From: Trichlorobacter lovleyi SZ
GTDB lineage: Bacteria > Desulfobacterota > Desulfuromonadia > Geobacterales > Pseudopelobacteraceae
NCBI RefSeq assembly: GCF_000020385.1
Contig: NC_010814.1
Coordinates: forward strand, 300,001-332,000
Direction of reading: 5' to 3'
DNA length: 32,000 nucleotides
Shown here: in pieces, positions 1-31,776 of the stretch
Position numbering within the stretch: position 1 is the stretch's first letter
Layout: each line of letters begins with the position of its first letter
Notes under the pieces: generated by a model
The model's input: the letters and a program-made list of their open reading frames with translations, nothing else
The model's database searches: none
What the model was told of the DNA's origin: nothing
Program-made: the position numbers and the translations under genes

Positions 1-806
1 TAGCTTGCGTAACGGGCCATCATCTCATCCAGAGTCAACATCGTCAGAGCCGAAACAAGGCTATTGCGCTGCCACCCATTGGCCGTTGCCTTCCGATCAA
101 AACGATCGACAAGCAGCACATCCTTGCCGGCGGCACGTTCCAGAGAGACCGGCGCCACATCAATGCCAGCCATGGCAGCTAGTCTCATTGCGACATACTC
201 TGCTTTGACGACGGAGTATAGGTCGGTGGAAGTGGAAAATTTCGCTATGAATTTCCGGGAATCACTTTCAATGAGGGCCTTGGGTCGTGCTCCACCGATA
301 GAGGTTCCATGCTGAAGGGCCTGTGCAAGCTCAGGGGTTAGCGGAATACCCTTCTCGACACGCTCGGTCGCCTCAATCAGTTCTTCAATGGGGGCTCCAG
401 AGGCATATCGCGGCTCGTACTGCGTAGGCGATAACTGGAAATCAAGGGCGCCTATCCTGTCGGACCCGGACTCAATAAGGTAACTGAGTTCGTCGAGTGC
501 TGCCGGGTCGATTCCAGACGCTTTATTTCCGAACTTCTTGTTGAGAATTACCCTGCGTCCCCAGGCATCAGGAGCAGCGTCCCGTAAACACCCCGGGATG
601 GAAAGCCCAGAAAGGAGAGGGAGTAGCCCCTGACGCAGGGGAAGTTCAGCGTCGTAAATCGAAATAGCATTGTCGCGCTGCAGGTAGCTTTTACCGTAGT
701 TGAAGACATATGTCGTCCCTACGGTCGTAAGCATTCCGGCCACTACCGGATCTGTCTCTCCAGGGAGCCAGATCCAGACATATAATTCTTTGTACTCAGA
801 ATTCAT
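1..806 (-). CDS. hipA: HipA-family serine/threonine kinase toxin, N-terminal ~268 aa; 3' part lies off the window
   Basis: Not in the ORF track because it runs off the left edge. Hand translation of the minus strand from ATG at 806..804 gives MNSEYKELYVWIWLPGETDPVVAG...SIGGARPKALIE...GKDVLLVDRFDRKA..., which are HipA N-terminal and kinase-core style motifs. It overlaps the stop of the upstream XRE gene by 11 nt. Confidence 0.85.
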   Translation of the reverse strand, partial: MNSEYKELYVWIWLPGETDPVVAGMLTTVGTTYVFNYGKSYLQRDNAISIYDAELPLRQGLLPLLSGLSIPGCLRDAAPDAWGRRVILNKKFGNKASGIDPAALDELSYLIESGSDRIGALDFQLSPTQYEPRYASGAPIEELIEATERVEKGIPLTPELAQALQHGTSIGGARPKALIESDSRKFIAKFSTSTDLYSVVKAEYVAMRLAAMAGIDVAPVSLERAAGKDVLLVDRFDRKATANGWQRNSLVSALTMLTLDEMMARYAS

Positions 807-1134
807 CGTTTACCTTCATAGAGCTGCGAACCAGCTGGGGCAGAAGAGCCAGCTTATCGTCAACCCGGCTTATATTTCTGGAGATATTCGCGTTCCCTTC
901 ATCCCCAAATAGGTTTACCCCAACCAGGTTGGCTACCTCAAACACCAGGCCGATCTCACACTTCGGATCGCCACGCTCGATCTTCTGCAAAGTCCTTCTG
1001 GAAATCCCTGCCCGACCAGACAGGTCTTCCTCAGTCATCTTGCGCTCTTTCCTGCCAAGCCGGATGAGTTTGCCCAACAGCTCTGCAGCATCCCGGGTCT
1101 GGCGGAGATATGTACGGTTGACTGGAGACGCCAT
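796..1134 (-). CDS. hipB: XRE-family HTH antitoxin (HipB-like)
   Basis: 112 aa with an HTH segment MTEEDLSGRAGISRRTLQKIERGD. ATG is preceded by AGGTGA. It lies directly upstream of, and overlaps, the hipA-like gene. Confidence 0.8.
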   Translation of the reverse strand: MASPVNRTYLRQTRDAAELLGKLIRLGRKERKMTEEDLSGRAGISRRTLQKIERGDPKCEIGLVFEVANLVGVNLFGDEGNANISRNISRVDDKLALLPQLVRSSMKVNDEF

Positions 1135-1276
1135 AGATCACCTATTGAGCATTAACGTAGTCATGTGATAGCTTCGTGATTACGATAATAGTCAAAACAT
1201 ATAAAGGCGTCAATAGAATTTACTGTTTAGCTGATGACCTGTCATGACTTAATGTCAATCCAAATGAAGCCAAATA

Positions 1277-1594
1277 TCATTCCAGTATTTTACCAAGTAC
1301 CGAGGAACAATAGTCATCCGTAACTTCACCTGATGGGATGATACGCCTTTCTACTATCGCTGCCGGTTTTGGTAGCAATTCTCTTGGCTGCTCCATGGCT
1401 ATTTGGGTTTTTGTGCGTGTTGGCGGAGTTTCGCGAGACATGAGATCCATGACCTGCATCCCTTGCTCTGATGCAAGAAAGTATTTGAGTGCTTCGTGAG
1501 TGTATGCCGACTGCTTCCGACTTTTACGGAGGCGTGCGAAGGCATTGACAATGTCGGGATCATAGGTTTTGATTTTGAGCGTGAACTGAGCCAT
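1277..1594 (-). CDS. Small putative ParR-like centromere-binding adaptor (assigned by position only)
   Basis: 105-aa ORF 9 nt downstream of the ParM-like gene, the classic parM-parR order. The N-terminus FTLKIKTYDPDIVNAFARLRK is compatible with a ribbon-helix-helix start. I recognise no sequence family. Confidence 0.45.
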   Translation of the reverse strand: MAQFTLKIKTYDPDIVNAFARLRKSRKQSAYTHEALKYFLASEQGMQVMDLMSRETPPTRTKTQIAMEQPRELLPKPAAIVERRIIPSGEVTDDYCSSVLGKILE

Positions 1595-1603
1595 GACTCA
1601 CGC

Positions 1604-2485
1604 TCACATTCCGCCAGCAAGTGAGCGGAATCCGCGGGCATTCGCAAATTCCGGAACCGGCAGGACGATTACCTCAATATTCTTTGCCGGAAAGCCATCC
1701 TTGAGCAGTGCGGCTCCGCCACCAAACAGCAATACCCGGTCGAAGTCGGCATGCATTCCAACGTGCGCCTGCAGCTCTCCCTGGACATCCTTTATGATGT
1801 GCTCGATGTAGGCAACGCCGGCATCGCTGATTTCTCTTCTGACATCGTGTCGCTCGAATCCGTATTGCAGATAACCCTTCTCGATCAGGAAAGCTATTTC
1901 GACCGGGGTAAAAGTGCCGGAAGGTGCCAGGTCCTTGATGCGTGGCAGCAGATAGCTGGTTGCCATTTGGTGAACACCCCGTTTGTTGAGGGTCTTGCCG
2001 TAGATGATCTGTCTTTTCTGAGGAGAAAAGAGCGTAAAGATGATGGTGTTGAATCCGATGTCTATTCCCAGCACGTTGCCTTCAGGGCGTTCCTCGACAT
2101 TATCCAGGTAATCCCTGAGTCCACCGAGTCCTTGCGGGAATATGGCAACGTCAGTGACGAGCGCTCCAGTCAATGCCTTTGCTAGGGCCGGAACCGCTCC
2201 GCCAGGTTTGTTTTGATCCTGCCAATAGGAATATGGCAGACCAACGGCGAGTGTTACTATCCCTTCTGCTCTCGCCGCCTTGAAACAGTGGCCAACAAAT
2301 TCTGGATAAAACCTTACAAGCTCTTCCATTGTTTTCAGGTAGGACGACCCTGATGACAACAGAGCTTCTTCGCCTAACAGCAGGTTTTCACCGTCATACC
2401 TGAATGCGGAAATAATTCTCCCCTTACGATCCTCATACATCCACTTCGCCGACGAAAATCCCAGATCACAAACCAGCACTCCCAT
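1604..2485 (-). CDS. parM: ParM/StbA-type actin-like plasmid segregation ATPase
   Basis: Actin-fold motifs: VLVCDLGFSSAKW (phosphate 1), VLGIDIGFNT (phosphate 2), VLLFGGGAALL (adenosine). Start moved from the ORF-track 2518 to ATG 2485, which follows GGAGG (plus strand cctcc at 2491-2495). Confidence 0.8.
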   Translation of the reverse strand: MGVLVCDLGFSSAKWMYEDRKGRIISAFRYDGENLLLGEEALLSSGSSYLKTMEELVRFYPEFVGHCFKAARAEGIVTLAVGLPYSYWQDQNKPGGAVPALAKALTGALVTDVAIFPQGLGGLRDYLDNVEERPEGNVLGIDIGFNTIIFTLFSPQKRQIIYGKTLNKRGVHQMATSYLLPRIKDLAPSGTFTPVEIAFLIEKGYLQYGFERHDVRREISDAGVAYIEHIIKDVQGELQAHVGMHADFDRVLLFGGGAALLKDGFPAKNIEVIVLPVPEFANARGFRSLAGGM

Positions 2486-2497
2486 GATTGCCTCCTT

Positions 2498-2700
2498 GGA
2501 GAATATTTTGGGGAACAAAACGTCCCCTACACCTATAATCTTGCGGGGGGGAAGGTGAAGGAGACGTTTTTGGGGAATATTTGGGGGAATATTTAGGTTC
2601 CATTCAATTAAGGACCCTTTTTCGGTACCTTTTTGTTCCCCTAAAAAGGCTCCTTACCTCTGTTTGCGCAACATGGAGAACTTTTGTTCTCCATGTTGCG
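2498..2700. repeat. Repeat field upstream of parM (candidate parC centromere/promoter)
   Basis: Motif family GG(G/A)GAA(T/C)A(T/A)(T/A)T. Direct copies: ggagaatatttt 2498-2509, ggggaacaaaa 2510-2520, ggggaatattt 2572-2582, gggggaatattt 2583-2594. Inverted copies: ttttgttcccc 2631-2641, ttttgttctcc 2682-2692. Also a perfect 15-bp-arm inverted repeat at 2667-2700 (cgcaacatggagaac tttt gttctccatgttgcg). Confidence 0.4.
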
Positions 2701-3297
2701 TTATTGGTTTTGTATCTGGGCGATCATCAATTCCAGGCGTTTGATTTGCTCATCAAACCGGAGCGCCACCAGGAAGCGCTGTAGTGCGTGCTCCAGATCA
2801 ATACCCCCGGCATTTATCGACGGATTGCCGATCATCTCCGCAACATAGGCATTGCGGTCGGGATGCCAGACAATTGTTACTGATGGATGTGAATCATGTA
2901 TCCTGGTGGATAGGACCCTCTGTGGCGGATCTTCACCGAACATCCGCGCATAAACGGCAGGAAAGTCTCTCTTCAATGCTTCATGGACATCTCCTTGTTC
3001 ACCTTGTGCCAGTTCTCGTGCGGCTTTTACCGGATCAAACCCCCATCCTGTACACCAGCGCGGGAAGGAATAGCCTTTCTTCCGCAAAACGGATTCCCAC
3101 TTAACATCGATTCCGTATGACCTACGCAGACCTTCTTTTGGGAGGGTATCAATGTCGCCGGTACCCCTGAGCAGATCATGAATATGTTCGGCGCTGTTCT
3201 TGTTCAGTGTCCTGGTTATTTCGATAACGCTCAAACCGGAGGTAAATGCCTCCACTATTCGTGAGTTGAGCTTTTCTTCCAGATTTTCTACTCTCAT
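2701..3297 (-). CDS. Hypothetical protein (198 aa); HTH-like N-terminus, HicB/UPF0150-like pattern at the C-terminus
   Basis: Strong SD (caaggagactacagcATG). N-terminal LSVIEITRTLNKNSAEHIHDLL looks like an HTH. C-terminal VTIVWHPDRNAYVAEMIGNPSINAGGIDLEHALQRFLVAL resembles the HicB-type antitoxin fold pattern. No family confidently recognised. Confidence 0.6.
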   Translation of the reverse strand: MRVENLEEKLNSRIVEAFTSGLSVIEITRTLNKNSAEHIHDLLRGTGDIDTLPKEGLRRSYGIDVKWESVLRKKGYSFPRWCTGWGFDPVKAARELAQGEQGDVHEALKRDFPAVYARMFGEDPPQRVLSTRIHDSHPSVTIVWHPDRNAYVAEMIGNPSINAGGIDLEHALQRFLVALRFDEQIKRLELMIAQIQNQ

Positions 3298-3326
3298 GCT
3301 GTAGTCTCCTTGTATTGGTGAGGTAC

Positions 3327-3362
3327 AACATTTCTAAAAGAACAAGTTCTTATAGAAATGTT
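3327..3362. repeat. 17-bp-arm near-perfect inverted repeat (operator- or hairpin-like)
   Basis: aacatttctaaaagaac aa gttcttatagaaatgtt, with one mismatch in 17. It lies between the stop of orf153 (3386) and the start of orf198 (3297). No U-tract follows on the coding (minus) strand. Confidence 0.6.
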
Positions 3363-3385
3363 TAGGTGTCGACTCTGACAGATGT

Positions 3386-3847
3386 TTATTCCCAAAAATT
3401 ACTGTGGTTCCCCTCCAATATGGCCAACTGGATCAAGGTATGTTTACGGCTTCCGGATCGAGAATAACGGCGAAGGTTGTAGGCCGCCTGGCGAACTCGA
3501 TGAATTTTGAAATGCGGGTACTCAATCTTGAAGTGTTGCCGGATTCTGGTTGCCATGTCTCTAGCCCGGAGTTTCATTCCAGGTTTGAGATTGAGATAAT
3601 TGCTAAGGATGTAGCGTTCGATTTTCCCGAAATTAGGGAAAGCCAGCATGACCGCTCTCTTGTCCGGTTTGAAGGTTTTATTCATCTGGGCGACGTACCA
3701 TTCGTCTGTCCAGACTCGACAGAGAGCAGAAAGAAGCAGCTGATTACTGTCAGTAAGCGGGAATTCGATGATGCGGTCTTCAGCAAGGCGCCTGAGCACC
3801 TTCTGGGATAATGGTTTGAACTTCGTGATTGCTGCATTGCGTTTCAT
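3386..3847 (-). CDS. Hypothetical basic protein (153 aa)
   Basis: ORF with SD AAGGAG 7 nt before the ATG. Lys/Arg-rich. No recognisable motif. Confidence 0.55.
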   Translation of the reverse strand: MKRNAAITKFKPLSQKVLRRLAEDRIIEFPLTDSNQLLLSALCRVWTDEWYVAQMNKTFKPDKRAVMLAFPNFGKIERYILSNYLNLKPGMKLRARDMATRIRQHFKIEYPHFKIHRVRQAAYNLRRYSRSGSRKHTLIQLAILEGNHSNFWE

Positions 3848-3902
3848 TATTGCTCCTTTGCGGGTCGTAATAATCGGTTGTTGCTGCCGTGAAGTATCTT
3901 GT

Positions 3903-4547
3903 TCAGGAAGGCGGGCTTCTCGACGAGTAACCCAAAGGCGTGAAGTCCTGTATGGCTACACAGCCAGACATTATTTCCTGGTGCTGTTGGGTCAAGAGCC
4001 TCATGCGGTCGACGACGATGGTTCCGTTGTCTGCGAGCTGCTTTATTCGTCTGAACGCCCGTTTCAAAGTGTCTCTGACATTGAAGTCAGAGCAGCCGTA
4101 GAGATCAGCGATCTCGTGTGTTGTTAGTTTCCCTTGTTCAGCTACCCCCAGGGAGAGAGACAGAGTTTCTCTTTCCCTTGCCGTCAAGTGGTGTGAAATA
4201 GCCTCGAAGATTGCCTCGATGTCAGCGCCTTCTTCACTCCTATGACTCGTCTGTTCGACTGCCTCGATGTCGCCATAACAGATATGCGAAGGAATCGAAT
4301 TGGAACCATGGGTAAAGTTAGGGTCAGGAGTGAGAACGCTGATCTTGTTCCGGAATGTGGTCCAGAAGGCAGCCTCGAACGGGATATTCTTCTCCTGACT
4401 ACGTAGGACTGCTACCAGAGCGGCTTCGTATGCCTCTTGCAGAAAATCGCACATATCATAGGGGGTGAATTTCCGATACTGCCTGATCTTGCTCTTGATC
4501 GTGGGTTCGTTGTCCTGCACCCATTGCATTGCCTTGAAGAAATCCAT
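3903..4547 (-). CDS. Sigma-70 family (ECF-like) RNA polymerase sigma factor with a ~50-aa C-terminal extension
   Basis: Region-2-like DMCDFLQEAYEAALVAV. Region-4-like LTARERETLSLSLG...LTTHEIADLYGCSDFNVRDTLKRAFRRIKQL. Start moved to ATG 4547 behind GGAGG (gatcggaggtcatATG); the ORF-track start 4616 would read through a terminator hairpin. Confidence 0.75.
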   Translation of the reverse strand: MDFFKAMQWVQDNEPTIKSKIRQYRKFTPYDMCDFLQEAYEAALVAVLRSQEKNIPFEAAFWTTFRNKISVLTPDPNFTHGSNSIPSHICYGDIEAVEQTSHRSEEGADIEAIFEAISHHLTARERETLSLSLGVAEQGKLTTHEIADLYGCSDFNVRDTLKRAFRRIKQLADNGTIVVDRMRLLTQQHQEIMSGCVAIQDFTPLGYSSRSPPS

Positions 4548-4560
4548 ATGACCTCCGATC

Positions 4561-4604
4561 AAACAAAAAAAGCCGGTCACGGAAGTTTTCTCCGTAGACC
4601 GGCT
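4561..4604 (-). terminator. Rho-independent terminator-like hairpin immediately upstream of the sigma-factor RBS
   Basis: Minus strand: agccggtc-tacggagaaaacttccgt-gaccggct followed by ttttttt. The T-tract ends ~6 nt before the GGAGG of the sigma gene. Confidence 0.65.
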
Positions 4605-4693
4605 TTGCCAGCACATTGAAGTGCCCGGCCGTGCCAGATTGAATCTGTGCTATTAGGTTGTCGTGCTACTACTGAAGGCCGGTTGCTCCAGGA

Positions 4694-5023
4694 TCATCTG
4701 ACAGGTTCAGAAAGCCTTACTCCCAAGCATGAAGCGATACGGATAATTTCCTCCGTGGATGAGACCTTCCGAAGATGATCTTCGACTTTTCTCCTGATTC
4801 TTACGGTGTCCCATCCAGAAGGAAGGTAAATTCCAAAAAGATGAATGGTGCCATCTTCAGCAATACTGATGGCCTGATCACGGAATGCCTTGATCACGAC
4901 ATTGATGTTCGGCAGACCTTCAACCAAGCGGTATGCATCACCTGCCTGGGTGATGGTAAGCCCTTGTTGTCGTAAATATGTGATGACGATTGTCACGGCG
5001 TCATCTGGAACTGGGCAGTTCAT
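4694..5023 (-). CDS. Hypothetical protein (109 aa) adjacent to the origin
   Basis: ORF with SD GAGGAGG before the ATG. No recognisable motifs. Confidence 0.55.
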   Translation of the reverse strand: MNCPVPDDAVTIVITYLRQQGLTITQAGDAYRLVEGLPNINVVIKAFRDQAISIAEDGTIHLFGIYLPSGWDTVRIRRKVEDHLRKVSSTEEIIRIASCLGVRLSEPVR

Positions 5024-5059
5024 GGGGTCCTCCTCAACGGGTTTTTCAGCCCCTATTGG

Positions 5060-5296
5060 TTATAAAAGGTTAAAAGAAGGTTAGGGGGCTGTGGAAAACT
5101 CTGTAACGTCTCGTGCTGTTTAGTGAAATTCCGATGTGCCTGTCGGCCAAAGGTCAATAGTTCCGCAGGTCTAAAGTCAATAGGTTTGCCGGTCAAAAGT
5201 CAGTACCTGTAGGGCTAAGGTCTATACTTTGTCGGTCAAAAGTCAGTAGTTGGCCGGTCATAGGTCAATACCTTGTAAGTCATAGGTCAATGCCTC
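5060..5296. other. Putative vegetative origin (oriV): AT-rich GGTTA repeats, DnaA-box-like site, seven iterons
   Basis: ggttataaaa ggttaaaagaa ggttaggggg (5059-5088). tgtggaaaa at 5090-5098 matches 8/9 positions of the DnaA box TGTGGATAA. The iteron array follows (next feature). Confidence 0.65.
5141..5296. repeat. Seven direct iterons, 21-23 bp spacing, core (A/T)AA(A/G)GTCA(A/G)TA(G/C)
   Basis: GTCA/GTCT cores start at 5153, 5176, 5199, 5220, 5242, 5264 and 5286. The last repeat overlaps the rep stop codon (5287-5289). Confidence 0.8.
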
Positions 5297-6207
5297 CGCG
5301 TGACGGATACCAGGTCTTCCCTGAACTCCCAGGATTCGAGGAAACTCACTTTGACGAGTACGTCGAGCGCCTTCCTCAATTCGATGCGAAAATGCCGTAA
5401 CTCCATCTCGGAACCGCACAGTTTGATGAGAGTCTCCGTTTTTACCGGGAACGGTTTCCGATGGCTCGACCAGTAACCGAAGAGTTTTGATGCAATGCCG
5501 TCTGGGAGTGCTCGTCTCGTCTCCCAATTCACCCTCGTCAGGAACTCTTCGTCGAATAGAAGGCGCATTTCTTCGCCAACCCATACTTCCCATCGGGATA
5601 GGGTTTCATTGTTATCGTTTCTGGACCGGAACTTGAGGATCAGGGAAACACTGATGAAGCTATCGAGGCGTTTTGATTGGAAGCGGATCGCGGTTGCCTG
5701 CATTCTGCTGAGACAGACGCGGAGCCGGTCGTAGCTTTGGCCCTTGATTGGCCAGCCAAGCATTTTGATGAAGGAATAAGGGGTGAAGTCGATACAATCG
5801 CCAAGACGGGTCTTCTTTGCCAGGTGCATCAGGTGCAACCAGACAAGTTCATCATCCTGGCGCAGTTCCTCTCCGCGATAAATTACCTGACCATCTCCGA
5901 TCACAGCTATTTCTGCATCCTTCATGAAGAGTCGAGCTTGATTACGGTTTCGACAATTGAAAAGTGCCGAACGAAGAATCTCATTCGGCATTGCTCGTTG
6001 AGTATCGGGCCATTCTGGAAGATACTTCGGTCTCGCTGCGAGGCTTTCAAGAATACGTTCGAACGAATCAACGCTGCTTCTATCGTCAACTGAGCTTGCT
6101 CTGTGCTGGAGTCTATTATGTTGCAATGGCCACCTCCCAGGATCGCGGAGGTAGTGCCGGTGAAACTCTGATCTGTTCGGTTTCGCGCACAAAGGCCTGA
6201 CGCTCAA
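5287..6207 (-). CDS. trfA: TrfA-family plasmid replication initiator
   Basis: LPEWPDTQRAMPNEILRSALF...IYRGEELRQDDELVWLHLMHLAKK...FTPYSFIKMLGW...YDRLRVCLSRMQATAI matches my memory of the conserved TrfA core (WP..R..PN..LRSALF; G.eL.q.D..VW). Start is uncertain: the track start 6207 is a TTG, and an in-frame TTG at 6126 has a much better SD (GGGAGGTGG). Confidence 0.8.
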   Translation of the reverse strand: MSVRPLCAKPNRSEFHRHYLRDPGRWPLQHNRLQHRASSVDDRSSVDSFERILESLAARPKYLPEWPDTQRAMPNEILRSALFNCRNRNQARLFMKDAEIAVIGDGQVIYRGEELRQDDELVWLHLMHLAKKTRLGDCIDFTPYSFIKMLGWPIKGQSYDRLRVCLSRMQATAIRFQSKRLDSFISVSLILKFRSRNDNNETLSRWEVWVGEEMRLLFDEEFLTRVNWETRRALPDGIASKLFGYWSSHRKPFPVKTETLIKLCGSEMELRHFRIELRKALDVLVKVSFLESWEFREDLVSVTRRH

Positions 6208-6416
6208 GGTCCCGACGGATAATATCCATCACACGATCAAACCTGGCTTCAGGGTCAGGTGATTTTTTGTATTCGATGGTTACTTTCACGGGCTGCTCGC
6301 AACAAACAGAAGATTAACTAAACATTTTGATGAAAATAATAAATACGTATGCTATAAATGATGAGTAAATGACGGTTGTATGTTTCATATAGACGATAAA
6401 CCGCTTGCAAATATCA

Positions 6417-6611
6417 TCAATCGGCCCAAAGTGCATCAAATGGCCAACCTAATTCTTGGGCAATCAGCCTTTGCAGGCGTTGTGATTTGGCTCTGCCGCT
6501 GATTACGTGATAGACCGCAGTACGATGTACCCCTGCTTTTTCAGCGATATGTGATCCTGATATTCCTTTCTGCATCATCAGGACCTTTATTTTAAGCGCT
6601 TTCCTCATCAT
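6417..6611 (-). CDS. Small Cro/Ner-like HTH DNA-binding protein
   Basis: 64 aa with HTH KGISGSHIAEKAGVHRTAVYHVISGR. Divergent from the CI-like repressor. No good SD at 6611; an internal start at 6578 (MMQKGIS) is possible. Confidence 0.6.
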   Translation of the reverse strand: MMRKALKIKVLMMQKGISGSHIAEKAGVHRTAVYHVISGRAKSQRLQRLIAQELGWPFDALWAD

Positions 6612-6641
6612 GATGATTATTGTTGCATAAGGATGAAAACC

Positions 6642-7334
6642 ATGTCAAGCCAAAATCTGCAAAATGATGATAACTTGATCGAAACCATCATCGAAAAGCT
6701 GAAAAAAGCCCTTGATCTGAAGAATGATACGGATGTCGCAAAAGCGCTAGAAAGCGATCCAAGGCTTCTTGGAACCTGGAAAAAGCGGGGAACAGTCCCG
6801 TACGATAAAATCATCAAATTGTGTATCAGGCATAACATCAATTTGCAGTGGATTTTCTCAGATGATAGTTCTCTTCCGACGGTGTGCCGTGACAATGGAC
6901 TTGTCTCGGAGGCTGATGGCTACGTCCAGGTTCCTCGTTACGAGGTCAAGGCCAGTGCTGGCGGAGGTGCAATTATTCATAGCGAACAGATTGTAGATCA
7001 CTTGTATTTCAAGACGGAGTGGGTAAAAAATGTGTTGGGAATTCCCAGGGATTTTCTGGCACTCATTTCAGTTCAAGGCGATAGCATGGAGCCTACCCTG
7101 AGCAACGGCGATCTGATCTTGATCGATGTCCGGACGTCGAAGGTTGAAGATGGCGCTATATACGTTGTGCAATACGACGATGTCTTACTTGTGAAGCGTC
7201 TTCAGAAGAAGTATGACGGCTCTGTTGTGATCCGAAGCGATAACACCCTATACGAGCCTGAAATTCTGCATGGGGATGAGGCGTTAAATCTTAAGATCGT
7301 CGGTAGGGTGGTTTGGGCCGGCGGGGTGATTTAG
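6642..7334 (+). CDS. CI/LexA-like repressor with S24 autopeptidase domain
   Basis: N-terminal phage-CI-type HTH (DTDVAKALESDPRLLGTWKKRGTVPYDKIIKLC...NLQWIF). C-terminal S24 motifs VQGDSMEPTL (catalytic Ser) and LLVKRL (Lys). ATG 6642 has AAGGA 8 nt upstream; the track start 6633 abuts the SD. Confidence 0.85.
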   Translation: MSSQNLQNDDNLIETIIEKLKKALDLKNDTDVAKALESDPRLLGTWKKRGTVPYDKIIKLCIRHNINLQWIFSDDSSLPTVCRDNGLVSEADGYVQVPRYEVKASAGGGAIIHSEQIVDHLYFKTEWVKNVLGIPRDFLALISVQGDSMEPTLSNGDLILIDVRTSKVEDGAIYVVQYDDVLLVKRLQKKYDGSVVIRSDNTLYEPEILHGDEALNLKIVGRVVWAGGVI

Positions 7335-7348
7335 ACAGGAATGACGGG

Positions 7349-8851
7349 ATGAACGTTGGGATATGGATAAGGGTATCAACAGAAGACCAGGCGCGGGGAG
7401 AATCGCCAAAGAATCATGAAGCCCGTGCTCGAATGTATGCAGAACTCAAGAGATGGAACATAGTAGACTTGTATGACCTGTCAGGCGTTTCAGGCAAGGA
7501 TGTCCTTGACAATCCCGAAGCCAAGAGAATGCTTGATGACGTAGCCGCTGGTCGAATACAGGCTCTTATCTTCTCAAAACTTGCTCGCCTTGCCCGCAAC
7601 ACCAAACAACTCCTAGAAATCTCCGACTACTTCCAAAAGCACGACGCTGCACTCGTAAGCCTTGAAGAGAGTATTGACACGTCCTCTCCTGCCGGCAGAC
7701 TCCTCTATACCGTTATCGGCGCATTGGCTCAGTGGGAGCGTGAGGAGATCTCTGCCCGTGTCGCAGCATCAATTCCTATCAGGGCAAAGTTGGGAAAGAA
7801 TACTGGTGGAAAGGGGGCCTTCGGTTATCACTGGATTGATGGAAAGATCGTTCCCAATCCGGATGAAGCTCCAGTCGTCAAAAGGGCATACCAAATATTC
7901 CTTGAAACCGGCAAGTTGCTCACAACCTGTAATCAACTCAAAGATGAAGGGCTCTATTCAAGGAGCAAGAAGGTTTACAGGCCGACATCTCTCAAGCGGC
8001 TTCTCTCGGATACAATCTACAAGGGCATACGCAGAGCCAACTACGCAAAGAGTCTTGGTAACAAGAAGAATTGGGTGCTGAAACCGGAGTCAGATTGGGT
8101 TTATACCAATGTGCAACCGCTGGTGTCGGAAGAGGACTGGGACGCAGCGAATAAAATCTTTGAGGAGACTGCTCGACGATACACATCATTCAAGTCGGTT
8201 CCAAAGGTTGGAAGGTTTTTGTTTTCAGGAATATTGAAATGCCAGTGCGGAGAAAAACTGTACGTTGCTCCATATCCGTCGATGAAGATTCCCCGTTATG
8301 CTTGCAAGAAATGTGGAATGAGAATCAACGAGGACATCATCGAGGAGAACTTCCAGAATGCCTTGAAGGAGGTGGTTGTCGCACCTGAACAGCTTGGTGC
8401 CAACGAAGATCTGGAAAATGAATTGGTGGAAAAGCAGGAGAGGCTTGAACTGCTGAAGAAAGAGCAGAAGGAAGTAAACGGGAAAGTTGATGTTTTAATC
8501 GACTTGTACGGTAAGCAGGTTCTTGATCAAAACGGGTTCAAAGAAAGATATGATCCGATCAAGATCAGGCTTGACAACATTACCTTGGAGATCCCCCGTC
8601 TGCAGGCAGAGATTGATTTCATCAAAACAAATGAGATTGGCAAGTCGTATGTAATCGAGAGAGCAACTACGCTGGCGTCACTGTGGCCATCGTTGAGTTA
8701 TGAGGCTAGGCAGCAAGTCGTGAAAGAACTTGTCGAGAGGATTGATGTCGGCGAGGATTCCCTTCATTTTGTTTTCTTTTATATCCCTTCGTTCGCGCCA
8801 GTAGAGAAAGGTTCACACATCTCCAGGGATTCATGGCTGTCACCAACATGA
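7349..8851 (+). CDS. Large serine recombinase (integrase)
   Basis: Resolvase catalytic domain [12 protein letters not shown]...[13 protein letters not shown], a recombinase domain, a zinc-ribbon-like CQCGEKLY...YACKKCG, and a coiled-coil C-terminal region. Start taken at ATG 7349 ([10 protein letters not shown]). The last ~9 codons and the stop lie in comM-derived DNA. Confidence 0.9.
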
Positions 8852-9878
8852 AGCGGGAGGGGTAGGTCAGGGATTGCAAGGCCCGTGAGATGGTGACGCG
8901 CCCGTCTTCCAACGGCTGACGCAGTACCTCAAGGGCGTTTTTCTTAAACTCCGGCAGTTCATCAAGAAACAGCAGGCCGTTGTGGGCCAGTGAGACTTCA
9001 CCAGGCTTGGGCGAAGTGCCGCCGCCAATCAGCCCTACATCAGAGATGGTGTGATGTGGGGCACGAAACGGACGCTGTGTCACCAAGGCAGTGCCGTTTT
9101 CCAGCATACCGCTGACACTGAAGACTGCGGTGGTTTCCAGTGCTTCGTCAAAACCCAGGGCAGGAAGTATTGACGGGATTCGACGGGCCAGCATGGTCTT
9201 GCCTGAGCCGGGTGGACCGATCATAAGGAGGTTGTGCGATCCAGCAGCAGCCACCTCAATGGCACGTTTGGCGTGGTCCTGCCCCCGTACCTCACAGAAA
9301 TCCTCACCATGCTCATCTTTCAGACTGAAAAGCTGCTGCAGATCAACCTGCTTGGGTGGTATTGCTGCTTCTCCTCGCAGGAACTGGACAACCTCTGCCA
9401 GGGTGCGGGCCGGCAGCACATCAACCCCTTCCACCACAGCTGCTTCCGATCCATTTTCAAGTGGCAGGATCAGACCGGCAAGCCCTGCCTTGCGGGCCGC
9501 GACTGCTACCGGCAGTGCGCCGCGCACCGGCTTCAGGCTGCCGTCAAGGGAGAGTTCGCCCAGCAGGATATAGCGGTTGACGCGATCACCGGTGATGGTA
9601 CCGGTGGCGGTCAGGATACCGATCGAGATCGGCAGGTCAAAGGCAGAGCCTTCTTTTTTCAGGTCTGCCGGCGCCAGGTTGGCGGTGATCCGGCGGGGCG
9701 GGAAGTCATAGCCGCTGTTCTTCAAGGCAGCCTTGACCCGGTCCTTGCTTTCCTTGACTGCACCGTCAGGCAGGCCGACAGTGGAAAACTGCGGCAGACC
9801 CTGGGCAATATCCACCTCTACATCGACCAGAATGGCGTCAATTCCGACAACGGTGGCACTCAGGACCTTGGCCAGCAT
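8824..9878 (-). pseudogene. comM: comM/yifB (Mg-chelatase-like AAA+ protein), 5' fragment interrupted by the element
   Basis: N-terminal Lon-like domain. Walker [14 protein letters not shown] and Walker [11 protein letters not shown]. Homology-like sequence stops after FMLVTAMNP, where CPCG is expected. The remaining 42 codons of ORF 8706..9878 read antisense through the recombinase gene. Confidence 0.85.
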
Positions 9879-9879
9879 T

Positions 9880-10683
9880 TCAGGCTTCCTTCAGCATGAT
9901 GAAGCCCATCTGCCGTCCTGTCTCACCGTCATCCCGCCGGTAGGAAAAGAACAGCTCTTTTTGGCAGCAGACACAGTTACCGGAGGTCTGGATGGAGCCG
10001 GGAACAAGCCCTGCATCCTCCAGCTGCATCCGGTTTGCCAGGGCCAGGTCAAGCCGCCATTTGCCATTGCCGGCAGGTTCTGCCACAGCGTTCCAGAGCT
10101 CAGCTTGATTCTTGAACCCATCCTTGACCGGTTGGTCCACTTCATAGCAACAGGGGTTGATACAGGGACCGATTGCAGCCTGTATATCTCTGGGGCGGCT
10201 GCCGAACACCTGTTTCATTCCTTCAGCGGCCTGGGCGGCAATCCGGGCCGCTGTGCCCTGCCAGCCGGCATGGACCGCGGCAATCACCTTCTTGGCCGGA
10301 TCAAACAACAGGAGCGGCACGCAGTCTGCCACGGTGACCCCGATCATTACGCCGGGCTGGTTGGTGATGATGGCGTCAGCCTCAAGGGCGGTAAAGTGCG
10401 AAAAATCATCGTTGGGCGCGTCAATAACCAGGATGTCGGTGCCATGGTTTTGGCGCACCGTGACCAGGCGTTCCTGTGGGATGCCAAAGGCCCGGGCCAG
10501 CAGGCTGCGGTTGCCCTCCACGTTGTGGGGCGAGTCATCGGTGTTCATGCCCAGATTCAGTGAGTTGTAGGGAGGACGTGAGATCCCTTCGTGGCGGGTT
10601 GTGAAGCCCTGAATCGTTGCCGGTGCTGTCGTTTCAAAGCTGGGCGCAAGATAGTGAATGCGTCCGATGCGGGTTGTTTCCAT
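9880..10683 (-). CDS. pgeF: YfiH/PgeF family (DUF152) peptidoglycan-editing/laccase-domain protein
   Basis: Family-typical motifs [25 protein letters not shown] and CCYEV. ATG 10683 has AAAGGAA upstream. The stop lies 1 nt from the comM ATG. Confidence 0.85.
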
Positions 10684-10700
10684 TTGAATTCCTTTGCCTT

Positions 10701-11321
10701 TCAAGGCTTATTACGGTTTAATGTCTGCCGGCGGCGCTGCCACCAGATATAGCCTGCCACCAGTCCACAGCTTGCCAGAATGACCCAGGCCAGGGCACGG
10801 TGGGACCAGGCCATGACCAGCTCCTGATTCTGGCCGATGGCGTAGCCGATCCAGGTCAGGATGCTGCACCAGATGCCGGCTCCCAGCAGGGTGTAGAGGG
10901 TAAAACGCAGATGATTCATGCCGGCTACGCCGGCAGGAATTGAAATGAGATGCCTGATAACCGGCAGCAAGCGGCCGATAAAGGTGGATATCTCGCCGTG
11001 GCGCAGAAAAAAAGACTCAACGCGCTCAAACTTGTCCGGCGGGATCAGGACATAACGGCCATATTTAAGGATCAGGGGGCGTCCCAGATAATGGGCGGCA
11101 TAGTAATTGGCGTAGGCCCCGGCCAGACTGCCAAAGGTGCCGGCCAGGATTGCCGGCAGCCATGCCATCCTCCCCTGGTGGATCAAATAGCCTGCCGGCG
11201 GCATCACCAACTCACTGGGGACAGGGATGATGGAGCTTTCCATCGCCATCAGCAGAAAAATGCCGGGATACCCCAAGTGGCCGACGGTTTCCAGCAGCCA
11301 GCTGATTAGTTCGTGAATCAT
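10701..11321 (-). CDS. DedA-family inner membrane protein
   Basis: Multi-pass membrane protein with the DedA-type segment FFLRHGEISTFIGRLLPVIRHLISIPAG. Confidence 0.85.
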   Translation of the reverse strand: MIHELISWLLETVGHLGYPGIFLLMAMESSIIPVPSELVMPPAGYLIHQGRMAWLPAILAGTFGSLAGAYANYYAAHYLGRPLILKYGRYVLIPPDKFERVESFFLRHGEISTFIGRLLPVIRHLISIPAGVAGMNHLRFTLYTLLGAGIWCSILTWIGYAIGQNQELVMAWSHRALAWVILASCGLVAGYIWWQRRRQTLNRNKP

Positions 11322-11405
11322 GAAAGTCCTTTACCGGGCAAAATGCCCCTCCTTATACCTTAAAAAGCTGGGCGATACAACCGCCCCCATGAAAGGAATC
11401 TGCTC

Positions 11406-11843
11406 ATGAGTATCAGATTTTGTGTGTTACTGCTGCTGCTACCGGTGCTGTTTGGGGGCTGTGCGTCGTTCCGCGCTAAAAACCGTCAGGACGCCTGTGA
11501 AAAGATGATCAAGGATTACAACCGGATGATCCGTTGGCAGGAGGCTGAAAAAGCAGGTATCGCCTTTGTTGATGCAAAGCAGCGCCCAAGCTTTGACAAG
11601 GGGGCCGAAGCGTTGCGCCGTCGTGGCGTTACGGTGGCAGATTACCGTATCCTGGCTAAGGAGTGTCTGGTTGAAAAGAAGAAGGCCGAGTCCACGGTTG
11701 AATTTGATTACTTTGTCATGCCTAATAACCGCTTGAAGACGGTGACGGATCATCAGAGCTGGATCTTTATTGAAGAGAATCCCGCAGAGCCCGAGCTGAA
11801 GGAAGGCTGGCGGCTTGTCTCTCCCCTGCCCGAGTTCAAGTAG
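11406..11843 (+). CDS. Putative lipoprotein, function unknown
   Basis: Signal peptide plus lipobox [15 protein letters not shown] gaaagga upstream. Confidence 0.6.
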
Positions 11844-11851
11844 GGCACCTG

Positions 11852-12805
11852 ATGGATGAGCTGGCGCACCAGGTGGCACGGTTTCTTGAGTTTCTGGCAA
11901 CGCAACGGAGTGCCTCGCCCCATACCATTGCTGCCTACCGTAATGATCTGAACGGGTTCAGCTCCTTTGTCCGGAGCGAGCGTGGCAACACGGTAAGTAC
12001 GAAGACGGTTGACCATCTGCTGCTGCGCCTCTATCTGGCGAGCCTGAATGGTGGTCTGGACAAACAGCAACGGGCCGGGTACGCAAAGAGCAGTATCGGA
12101 CGTAAGCTGGCGGCAGTCAGGGCGTTCTTTGGCTGGCTGGTGCGGACCAGGCAGCTTGAGGTCAACCCGGCAGAGCTGATTGCCACACCCAAGCGGGAAC
12201 AACGCCTTCCCTTTCATCTGAATATTGATCAGACCGTCACGCTGATCGAGGCCCCTGGCCATACTGGGCAGGAACAGCCAACTTTTGCCCGGGATACGGC
12301 CATTCTTGAGTTGCTCTATTCAAGCGGTCTGAGGGTCTCGGAGCTGACCGGACTGGCGGTTGCTGATCTTGATCGTGCCGCTGGAATGGTCAGGGTGCAG
12401 GGAAAGGGCGGTAAGGAGCGGATTGTGCCGGTCGGATCAGCTGCCTTGGAGGCGCTGGAGCAGTATCTTGCCGGGCGTGGCCAGCTGGCGGATGATGCCC
12501 CGCTCTTCCTCGGCTGTCGTGGCGCCCGGATCAACCGGCGTACGGTTGCACAGCTGGTAAAACGCTGGGCTTCAGGCATTCCTGCCTTTCGCTCGATTTC
12601 GCCTCATACCCTGCGCCATACCTTTGCCACACATATGCTGGAAGGGGGGGCTGACCTGCGCTCAATTCAGGAGCTGCTGGGGCATTCCTCCCTCTCCACA
12701 ACCCAGAAGTATACCCATGTCGGGCTTGATCGCCTGCTGGAGGTCTATGACAAGGCCCATCCCCGTGCCCGCGAGACAGACCAACAAAACGGGGAGAGTG
12801 CCTGA
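11852..12805 (+). CDS. xerC: Tyrosine recombinase, XerC/XerD family
   Basis: N-terminal SAM-like domain ([23 protein letters not shown]). C-terminal catalytic box [39 protein letters not shown]. Confidence 0.85.
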
Positions 12806-31638: not shown

Positions 31639-31729
31639 GTTCTTCCTGGAGAGGTGTCCGAGTGGCTGAAGGAGCACGCCTGGAAAGTGTGTGTACGCTA
31701 ATCCCGTACCCAGGGTTCAAATCCCTGCC
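31639..31729 (+). tRNA. tRNA-Ser (anticodon GGA), class II with long variable arm, CCA encoded
   Basis: Acceptor GGAGAGG/CCTCTCC. Anticodon stem CACGC/GTGTG with loop CTGGAAA. Variable arm GTACG-ctaatcc-CGTAC. T arm CAGGG-TTCAAAT-CCCTG. Discriminator G followed by CCA. Confidence 0.95.
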
Positions 31730-31737
31730 TCTCCGCC

Positions 31738-31776
31738 ATACCTATCAAAGGGCTACGTACTTGATTGTCGTAGCCC
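31738..31776 (+). terminator. Terminator hairpin after tRNA-Ser
   Basis: gggctacg tacttgattgt cgtagccc followed by tttttcttt. Confidence 0.6.

Follow-up and report, generated by a model that had tools for sequence, protein, structure and literature searches.

The comM locus of Trichlorobacter lovleyi SZ

The stretch analysed here (the window) comprises 32,000 nt of the chromosome of Trichlorobacter (Geobacter) lovleyi SZ (NC_010814.1, positions 300,001–332,000), and its first 8.8 kb carry recombination, regulatory and plasmid-maintenance genes that interrupt the host gene comM. Positions 1–8825 probably represent the integrase-proximal end of an F-type (MPF_F) integrative and conjugative element (ICE) of ~156 genes. 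The truncated ComM of the window matches the T. lovleyi SZ protein at 100% identity, and the empty site is found in another T. lovleyi strain (locus L014), where an intact 509-aa ComM (P0003) lies in the same neighbourhood. DNA identity to the L014 comM runs through ...GCCATGAATCCCTG and ends at window position 8824; this comparison places the element border at 8824–8825, inside comM codon 358/359, such that ComM is interrupted after AMNP and before CPCG. The remaining 5′ part of comM (codons 1–358; 8826–9878, minus strand) is annotated as a 390-aa open reading frame (ORF; 8706–9878) that continues to 8706 inside the element, and its end is overlapped by the integrase ORF. Many 390-aa chimeric ComM ORFs with the identical tail occur, in hosts at only 73–89% ComM identity. 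The G+C content is 0.45–0.50 up to ~8.8 kb, in the element, compared to 0.55–0.62 beyond, in the host.

The same DNA was described by Wagner et al. (2012; PMC3403914) as the 'Tr' genomic island of SZ (Glov_0226–0336, 108 ORFs), with tra genes at Glov_0304–0322, a 'resolvase' (Glov_0336) at one flank, and limits set by composition and BLAST. The comM target, the att sites, the replicon and the split integrase were not recognised in 2012. By GenBank accession numbers, the att-defined SZ element extends from ACD93909 to ACD94064 (~156 coding sequences). The island, of which an earlier reading of the window made from the sequence alone had noticed the right-hand end, has thus been partly known since 2012, and what is newly recognised is its borders, its target and its replicon.

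Gene content of the integrase-proximal end

Gene calls combined an ORF listing with family scans (Pfam, NCBIfam, PHROGs and PADLOC), and ratios of non-synonymous to synonymous divergence (dN/dS) are pairwise values against seven relatives of the element. The junction at comM is attL (8800–8825), composed of a P′ arm at 8800–8823 (AGTAGAGAAAGGTTCACACATCTC) and the crossover dinucleotide CA/TG at 8824–8825. Overlapping it is the integrated form of the integrase, a 500-aa large serine recombinase (7349–8851, plus strand; ACD94064.1; phrog_95, 3.6e-103; dN/dS 0.02–0.10), whose Resolvase catalytic domain with the serine of an RVST motif (read from the sequence), Recombinase domain, zinc ribbon and short att site with a central dinucleotide are those expected of this family. 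Its ORF begins 14 nt after that of a CI-like repressor with an S24 autopeptidase domain (6642–7334, plus strand; Peptidase_S24 1e-21, Phage_CI_repr 3e-9; dN/dS 0.04–0.10), in which SAGGG, GDSM and VKR motifs are present. On the opposite strand, a cro-like helix-turn-helix (HTH) gene (6417–6611, minus strand; HTH families, repressor PHROGs and BcepMu gp16) is the first of a leftward operon. The start codons of cro and cI are only 30 bp apart, and the best promoter-like site of the element (6648–6619, minus strand; TTGACA-18-AACAAT with a TG extension; a consensus match only) would start a leaderless cro mRNA approximately at the ATG and overlaps the first cI codons.

The leftward genes, all on the minus strand, include a complete-looking iteron replicon. 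A small conserved ORF, orf57 (6116–6289; also called in L007, L009 and L011; dN/dS 0.09–0.49), overlaps the start of trfA (5287–6126), which encodes a 279-aa replication initiator (PF07042 1.3e-49, 169 bits against a cut-off of 22; dN/dS 0.02–0.14), or 306 aa from an alternative upstream TTG at 6207. This TrfA shares 47–51% identity with the TrfA of real plasmids (Methylomagnum, Nitrosococcus and Polaromonas); the Methylomagnum TrfA plasmid has no backbone in common with the element. Between trfA and orf109 lies the oriV (5058–5293), which comprises an A+T-rich stretch at 5058–5085, a DnaA-box-like TGTGGAAAA at 5091–5099 (both consensus-level matches only), and, within 5141–5293, seven 20-bp direct-repeat iterons of consensus TGTCGGTCAAAAGTCAATAG at 22–23 bp spacing, starting at 5141, 5164, 5187, 5208, 5230, 5252 and 5274. 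With up to three mismatches allowed, all five occurrences of the iteron core in the 32 kb (both strands) fall in the cluster, the spacing of which is kept in nine related loci. Judged on its sequence, the architecture of this origin is complete.

Further left, orf109 (4694–5023; dN/dS 0.06–0.20) precedes a sigma-70/ECF-family sigma factor (3903–4547; TIGR02937, 48.8 bits against a cut-off of 42.9; Sigma70_r4) with syntenic homologues on the plasmids pSD and pPRO1, followed by orf153 (3386–3847; dN/dS 0.11–0.38) and the conserved backbone gene orf198 (2701–3297; dN/dS 0.14–0.18), which is 28–30% identical to syntenic pSD and pPRO1 genes and is followed by a hairpin with a 16-bp stem (2666–2701). 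Three of these small ORFs (orf57, orf109 and orf153) are candidates for a recombination directionality factor (RDF). A parC-like region (2486–2665) holds 12-bp repeats (TTGGGGAATATT) at 2496, 2558, 2570 and 2584; the repeats at 2496–2597 are few in number, and together with the inverted copies at 2631–2653 they plausibly form a parC centromere upstream of parM (2496–2653). The parM-like gene for an actin-type partition ATPase (1604–2485) scores below the Pfam and NCBIfam cut-offs and is supported by phrog_691 (4e-20) and by 39–43% identity to ParM/StbA of pPRO1, pSD and a T. lovleyi plasmid. Its neighbour (1277–1594; 105 aa, dN/dS 0.05–0.29) is a putative ParR adaptor by position, directly after parM as on pPRO1. 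No match in Pfam, NCBIfam, PHROGs or PADLOC was obtained for orf57, orf109, orf153, orf198 or the ParR candidate.

At the left end of the window, a hipB antitoxin gene of XRE HTH type (796–1134; HTH_3 3e-8) overlaps by 11 nt the start of hipA, the 5′ part of which (3–806; Couple_hipA 1.6e-7, HipA_C 4.5e-20) continues past the window end; in relatives hipA is full-length, at 430 aa. An XRE antitoxin gene that precedes and overlaps a gene for HipA kinase domains is the arrangement of a HipBA module. The exact hipB sequence is present on 148 contigs, with dN=0 against the seven relatives. Thus, the iteron replicon, hipBA pair, sigma factor and CI/Cro pair of the sequence-only reading are borne out, along with a probable actin-type (type II) partition system, every gene that it named being present where it had placed it, and its element end at 8823 is correct to within 1–2 bp of the limit of identity with the L014 comM.

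The host flank (window 9880–12805 and 31648–31738) is ordinary, with a PgeF-like Cu-oxidase_4 gene, a DedA/VTT membrane protein, a XerC-like tyrosine recombinase and tRNA-Ser(GGA), and its gene order recurs in the strain with intact comM. Besides this host tRNA, no Rfam family was found in the window.

The far junction and the att sites

Ten related loci (L001–L010), found by the exact HipB sequence in Geobacter sp. SVR, G. sulfurreducens subsp. ethanolicus, other genomes and metagenomes, are 88–99% identical in DNA to the window element. Their gene order is comM-int-cI-cro-trfA-...-parM-hipBA, followed by OmpA, DsbC, TraL, TraE, TraK, TraB, TraV and TraC, of which TraL-E-K-B-V-C constitute an F-type mating apparatus lying within 3 kb after hipA, outside the window. 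The absence of conjugation genes remarked on in the earlier reading therefore holds for the 8.8 kb, but only because the window ends there; the tra genes lie just to the left, in the ten relatives and in SZ itself (PMC3403914). One variant, L010 (JAHCVK010000001.1, 475–5852), has no int, cI or cro, a 984-aa ORF between the comM pieces and a 5′-truncated trfA, and on this sequence is a decayed copy.

The opposite end can be read in relatives. ComM C-terminal fragments with a common foreign N-terminus (MRTSAVLS..RERLTHP|CPCG) are frequent in Geobacterales, and in L097, L099 and L100 the far end consists of variable cargo, a conserved XRE-HTH ORF and then ...AGTAGAGAAAGGTTAACACACCCC-TG-comM 3′; together with L107 and L109, these are the attR loci. 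The two junctions of Geobacter sp. SVR share a chromosome, where they stand 162 kb apart in the same orientation. The attP site reconstructed from the two element arms, AGTAGAGAAAGGTKMACACACCCC-TG-GAGATGTGTGAACCTTTCTCTACT, is symmetric around TG at 21/24 positions, and since the host of L005 has CCATG at the junction, the crossover is confined to the TG dinucleotide. The explanation that best accounts for these observations as a whole is that the large serine recombinase recombined this near-palindromic attP with the comM sequence encoding the conserved motif AMNP|CPCG, which we consider likely. With attL and attR definable, an empty site in L014, and type IV secretion genes in the relatives (in SZ, via PMC3403914), the element shows two of the features that define an ICE, site-specific integration and mating-pair-formation genes of its own. 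Insertion in comM by the recombinase, as the sequence-only reading had supposed, is thus upheld by two defined junctions; the comM 3′ half that it expected to the left is present at the far junction in Geobacter sp. SVR and the T. lovleyi-type contigs L107 and L109, and an intact comM exists in a related genome, that of L014.

For SZ, the exact terminal HTH protein (ACD93909.1 / WP_041243025.1) adjoins a T. lovleyi-type attR in L107 and L109, the right flank of which is 100% identical to L014. The SZ attR is accordingly predicted as AGTAGAGAAAGGTGCACACACCCC-TG, followed by the comM 3′ part and a fic gene; excision would yield a circle with the attP junction GAGAAAGGTGCACACACCCCTGGAGATGTGTGAACCTTTCTC and a repaired comM attB of ATGAATCCCTGTCCTTGTGG. 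A ComM C-terminus search of genome contigs returned, among the matches listed, mostly unrelated phyla and neither SZ nor other ICE-bearing genomes.

The far end is composite in several loci. Two copies of an 'XRE-HTH ORF + P arm' unit occur in L103, L104 and L108 (4.4 kb apart) and in L099 (at 1029 and 10031); the inner junction runs from the P arm through TG to a 27-bp comM-like stub, and then to AraC, an iron-dependent alcohol dehydrogenase (Fe-ADH), TraR/DksA and the outer HTH ORF. In L109, L110 and L112 the 4.4-kb far-end block lies alone in comM, where its left edge regenerates an attB-like site, an arrangement that by analogy resembles the accretion of a cis-mobilisable remnant. When L109 is compared with L014, the comM 3′ part and 6.5 kb of flank are 100% identical but the comM 5′ part on the same contig is only 82.9% identical, which points either to a recombinant flank (e.g. 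by co-transfer of chromosomal DNA) or to a chimeric assembly. In addition, Tn7-like elements (TnsA, TnsB and a TniB-helicase) occupy another comM position in L001 (1–1434), L002 (1–1395) and L098 (4048–9848), and one of them is arranged in tandem with the ICE in Geobacter sp. SVR; at least two unrelated integration machineries therefore use comM as a hotspot in these bacteria.

The integrase gene is split by its own attP

The attP site lies within the serine integrase ORF, which crosses the P′ arm and the core. In the integrated state, the integrase ends nine codons into comM antisense (..EKGSHISR|DSWLSPT*), and at the far end the HTH ORF has no ATG between the att core and the HTH domain, and is annotated to start at a P-arm GTG that is separated from the core by 4 nt. 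Joining P and P′ gives one frame with zero stop codons, of 655 aa in SZ and 647 aa in SVR. The circle would therefore join a 491-codon recombinase core in frame to a ~160-codon tandem XRE-HTH tail, which in the chromosome is found at the opposite junction, ~150 genes away. The core (residues 1–491, spanning the catalytic, recombinase, zinc-ribbon and coiled-coil regions) is whole without the tail. On the reconstructed reading frame, the circle is the only form of the element from which the 655-aa fusion can be made.

Unsplit homologues provide an opportunity to evaluate this reconstruction. In a search of 1.84 billion cluster representatives, the closest recombinases (37–47% identity) are often 602–674 aa long, and at least 13 representatives are unsplit Int-HTH proteins with a homologous C-terminal XRE-HTH domain. 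The reconstructed fusion aligns to unsplit homologues as a single end-to-end BLASTP segment (e.g. P0396, E=1.6e-163). In the unsplit P0397 gene (L115), which lies beside coupling-protein genes, a palindrome centred on CA at codon 495 scores 19/22, compared to 12/22 for the next best in the gene; the best palindrome of the SZ reconstruction is likewise 19/22, at codon 491. Selection in the far-end ORF extends beyond the HTH domain (ratio of non-synonymous to synonymous differences, pN/pS, 0.11) to the 36-codon linker outside the P arm (0.23), and the P arm is conserved as DNA (synonymous differences, pS, 0.026).

The arrangement is not confined to T. lovleyi. Relatives P0392–P0394, P0406 and P0409 end in comM-antisense tails. 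Three further serine recombinases (P0400, P0433 and P0539) are fused in frame to the ComM C-terminal region as Int-ComM chimeric ORFs, and therefore point to insertion at the same comM motif in the opposite orientation. Taken together, most close members with readable C-terminal tails indicate that motif as the target, with attP in the gene linker. Another unsplit Int-HTH gene (P0398; L117, 734–2758) has a linker encoding AMKPHPCVAF, the DNA of which (GCAATGAAACCTCATCCTTGCG) resembles the comM attB (GCCATGAATCCCTGTCCTTGTG), suggesting that the attP of P0398 mimics its target. A review of archaeal recombinases (PMC8371274) knows att-within-integrase systems only from archaeal tyrosine recombinases, and our literature search found no serine recombinase with an att site inside its own gene. 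Insofar as these alignments and tails can be read in this way, the new and more interesting result is that integration splits the integrase gene in a clade of large serine recombinases that target comM. It is conceivable, and we propose it tentatively, that the element thereby produces two state-specific integrases (655 aa from the circle and 500 aa when integrated), with the switch controlling the direction of recombination or reporting the excised state to the regulatory circuit.

That the frame continuity across attP is functionless, with the HTH protein an independent regulator translated from the P-arm GTG and the integrase tolerant of variable tails, seems unlikely to us, though it has points in its favour. 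The GTG is only 4 nt away from the core, annotations give the HTH protein as 161 aa or 117 aa, integrated integrases carry host-dependent tails (495–532 aa in total), and the recombinase core is complete without any tail. However, core and tail form one polypeptide in at least 13 homologue clusters, the linker is under purifying selection, and the frame is kept in both genomes for which both halves are known. Moreover, since the DNA upstream of the HTH ORF in the integrated state is host comM, no conserved ribosome-binding site is possible there.

Selection, plasmid kinship and mobility

The backbone genes are under purifying selection. Besides trfA and int, dN/dS does not exceed 0.25 for cI, cro, parM, the sigma factor gene or hipB, and none of the genes exceeds 0.5, the unnamed ORFs included. 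The backbone also stands in common order with three free plasmids, pPRO1, pSD and a 290-kb T. lovleyi plasmid, at 23–55% amino-acid identity across the CI-like repressor, the sigma-like protein, orf198, ParM, OmpA, DsbC and TraL to TraC. This shared syntenic backbone makes the element an integrating cousin of a conjugative plasmid lineage. Because the CI-like repressor is also found on pSD and pPRO1, it is better regarded as part of the conjugative backbone than as a phage module, and a plasmid–phage hybrid that lacks transfer genes is not supported. The same comM junction in hosts with 73–89% ComM identity, yet in elements 88–99% identical, argues for recent horizontal spread.

Strong purifying selection on the maintenance genes, and a backbone in synteny with free plasmids of Geobacterales, make it plausible that the element behaves like a plasmid once excised, as judged from intact, conserved parts and their position. 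The hybrid lifestyle that the earlier reading had proposed survives in part: an integrated mobile element with a plasmid maintenance kit is present, but the element is an ICE of type F, whose plasmid-like phase is deduced, the circular form having been absent from the contig and protein databases searched. That ICEs may carry replication and partition genes is well established; theta replicases occur in 16 of 200 curated ICEs, none of those of type F (PMC5587801). An F-type ICE with a theta replicon is therefore new, but not categorically so.

Several observations weigh against an active ICE with a circular, fusion-encoding phase. The attP pattern, exact and relaxed, is absent from JGI metagenome contigs and IMG/VR, and neither reconstructed fusion protein, of SZ or of SVR, has an exact match in a collection of 15 billion proteins. 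Megablast of the 8.8 kb against PLSDB plasmids gave zero matches, and no close relative of the recombinase was found on those plasmids (matches at most 26% identity). No RDF, relaxase or oriT was identified in the DNA read, which does not include the island middle, and none of the RDF candidates (orf57, orf109, orf153) is shared with L115 or L117. The related plasmids are typed 'non-mobilizable' by MOB-suite, with no relaxase in pPRO1 or pSD and a TraD-like coupling protein in pPRO1. The far junction of SZ is placed indirectly, from other assemblies in which the exact SZ HTH protein stands beside a T. lovleyi-type attR. An unsplit 637-aa Int-HTH gene (P0543) lies on a 1.7-Mb contig, so that an unsplit gene is not always the sign of a free circle, and the GTG inside the P arm could permit independent translation of the HTH ORF.

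Alternative explanations

Some of these observations would suit an island that is a fixed, immobile remnant of an integrated plasmid and no longer excises or transfers. No attP-bearing contig was found in the databases searched, partial codon-usage amelioration of the tra genes is noted in PMC3403914, the far end is composite, and decayed variants exist, with trfA truncated in L001 and L010, and int and cI missing from the latter. Nevertheless, we regard this as quite improbable, because the backbone genes have dN/dS of 0.02–0.3, a conspecific strain has the empty site, and closely similar elements occupy the same junction in hosts of divergent ComM. A different possibility accepts the mobile ICE but assigns TrfA and oriV a purpose other than vegetative maintenance of the excised form, e.g. 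incompatibility with or exclusion of related plasmids, or local amplification while integrated. The element is integrated in all of the at least 20 contigs seen, related plasmids in the same hosts use other Rep proteins, and no MPF_F element among the 200 curated ICEs has a theta replicase (PMC5587801), all of which could be read in this way. In contrast, the complete origin and the placement of trfA in an apparently CI-controlled leftward operon with parMR and hipBA fit post-excision maintenance, and a separate purpose seems rather improbable.

A prophage, phage-plasmid or phage satellite resembling a phage-inducible chromosomal island (PICI) would turn int, cI, cro, rep and ori into a lysogeny–replication module moved in capsids. 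The order of these genes does resemble that of phage-inducible islands, and the CI, Cro and integrase proteins match PHROG families. However, neither the window element nor the following 10 kb in the ten relatives has a capsid, terminase or tail gene, an F-type secretion system being found in the latter instead; the same CI-like/sigma/ParM backbone is carried by the conjugative plasmids pSD and pPRO1; and there was no IMG/VR match, nor did a TraC search of IMG/VR return any. With no structural genes in the DNA covered, the phage or PICI reading was rejected, and we consider it barely credible.

Comparison with known systems

A close functional parallel to the T. lovleyi ICE is the SXT/R391 family, which, like the related IncA/C plasmids, combines an F-type mating apparatus with an SOS-cleavable, lambda CI-like repressor (SetR) divergent from a cro-like gene, in a modular layout of regulation, maintenance and transfer functions. 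A ParM-type system (srpMRC) and a HipAB-like pair reportedly stabilise the excised form. In SXT itself, integration at prfC is by a tyrosine integrase, activation by SetCD and replication by a relaxase-driven rolling circle, whereas the T. lovleyi element carries a large serine recombinase that acts at comM, along with a sigma factor and a theta replicon of TrfA-iteron type. Neither Int_SXT nor FlhCD-like genes are found in the window element, and the sigma factor stands in the place of the latter. The plasmids pPRO1 (NC_008607.1), pSD (CP014964.1) and NZ_CP058410.1 of T. lovleyi share the CI-like-to-TraC backbone (23–55% identity) but replicate freely by means of other Rep proteins, and neither this recombinase nor TrfA nor the att site is present on them. 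The AbaR/Tn6019-type Tn7-like transposons of Acinetobacter share the target gene comM, at another position and by TnsABC-type transposition rather than site-specific serine recombination.

With respect to the split gene, the Myxococcus phage Mx8 (intP/intX) has its att site inside its own integrase gene, which encodes a tyrosine recombinase. The SSV-type 'suicidal' tyrosine integrases of archaea (PMC8371274) likewise have att inside the integrase ORF. In both, integration cuts the ORF, and different proteins are then encoded by the chromosome and by the free element. In the SSV type, however, the catalytic domain is separated and the enzyme inactivated, whereas the T. lovleyi serine recombinase loses only its C-terminal XRE-HTH domain.

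A possible life cycle and its implications

These features allow a mechanism to be sketched, in which the behaviour of each module is taken from what is known of its family. In the integrated state, a rightward cI-int operon would produce the S24 CI-like repressor and the 500-aa integrase, which alone would recombine attP with attB only and would be unable to recombine attL with attR. If the leftward operon is CI-controlled, the origin would be silent while the element is integrated, in line with SXT/R391 ICEs and with the overall picture drawn in the ICE survey (PMC5587801). DNA damage may induce RecA-stimulated autocleavage of CI, and its loss would open the leftward operon cro-orf57-trfA-(oriV)-orf109-sigma-orf153-orf198. 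One small protein (perhaps orf57, orf109 or orf153) could then act as the RDF, allowing the element to excise. TrfA would bind the iterons and fire the origin, ParMR/parC would segregate the copies, HipBA would penalise loss, and the sigma factor may activate the tra genes. The state-specific XRE tail of the integrase may serve regulation or directionality.

As an ICE equipped with plasmid-like maintenance genes, and one already seen in 2012, the island is of an ordinary kind; what it has now gained is exact borders, att sites and a target. The target is the most conserved comM motif, which accounts for the spread across Geobacterales genera, and the choice of comM fits the idea that mobile elements disable transformation genes. 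The presence of free-plasmid cousins in the same hosts is useful for studies of ICE–plasmid interconversion in bioremediation-relevant bacteria, and the 50-bp attP/attB pair could serve as a genetic tool for Geobacter. As a clear F-type ICE with a TrfA-iteron theta replicon, the element shows a combination found in none of the 200 curated ICEs (PMC5587801). Should the detachable XRE tail affect directionality, it would offer a natural design principle for serine-integrase tools, in which the main problem for engineers is to control direction. If the two state-specific forms of the integrase exist as proposed, the split gene would constitute a bacterial serine-recombinase counterpart of the archaeal att-in-gene integrases, extending across a clade of comM-targeting recombinases.

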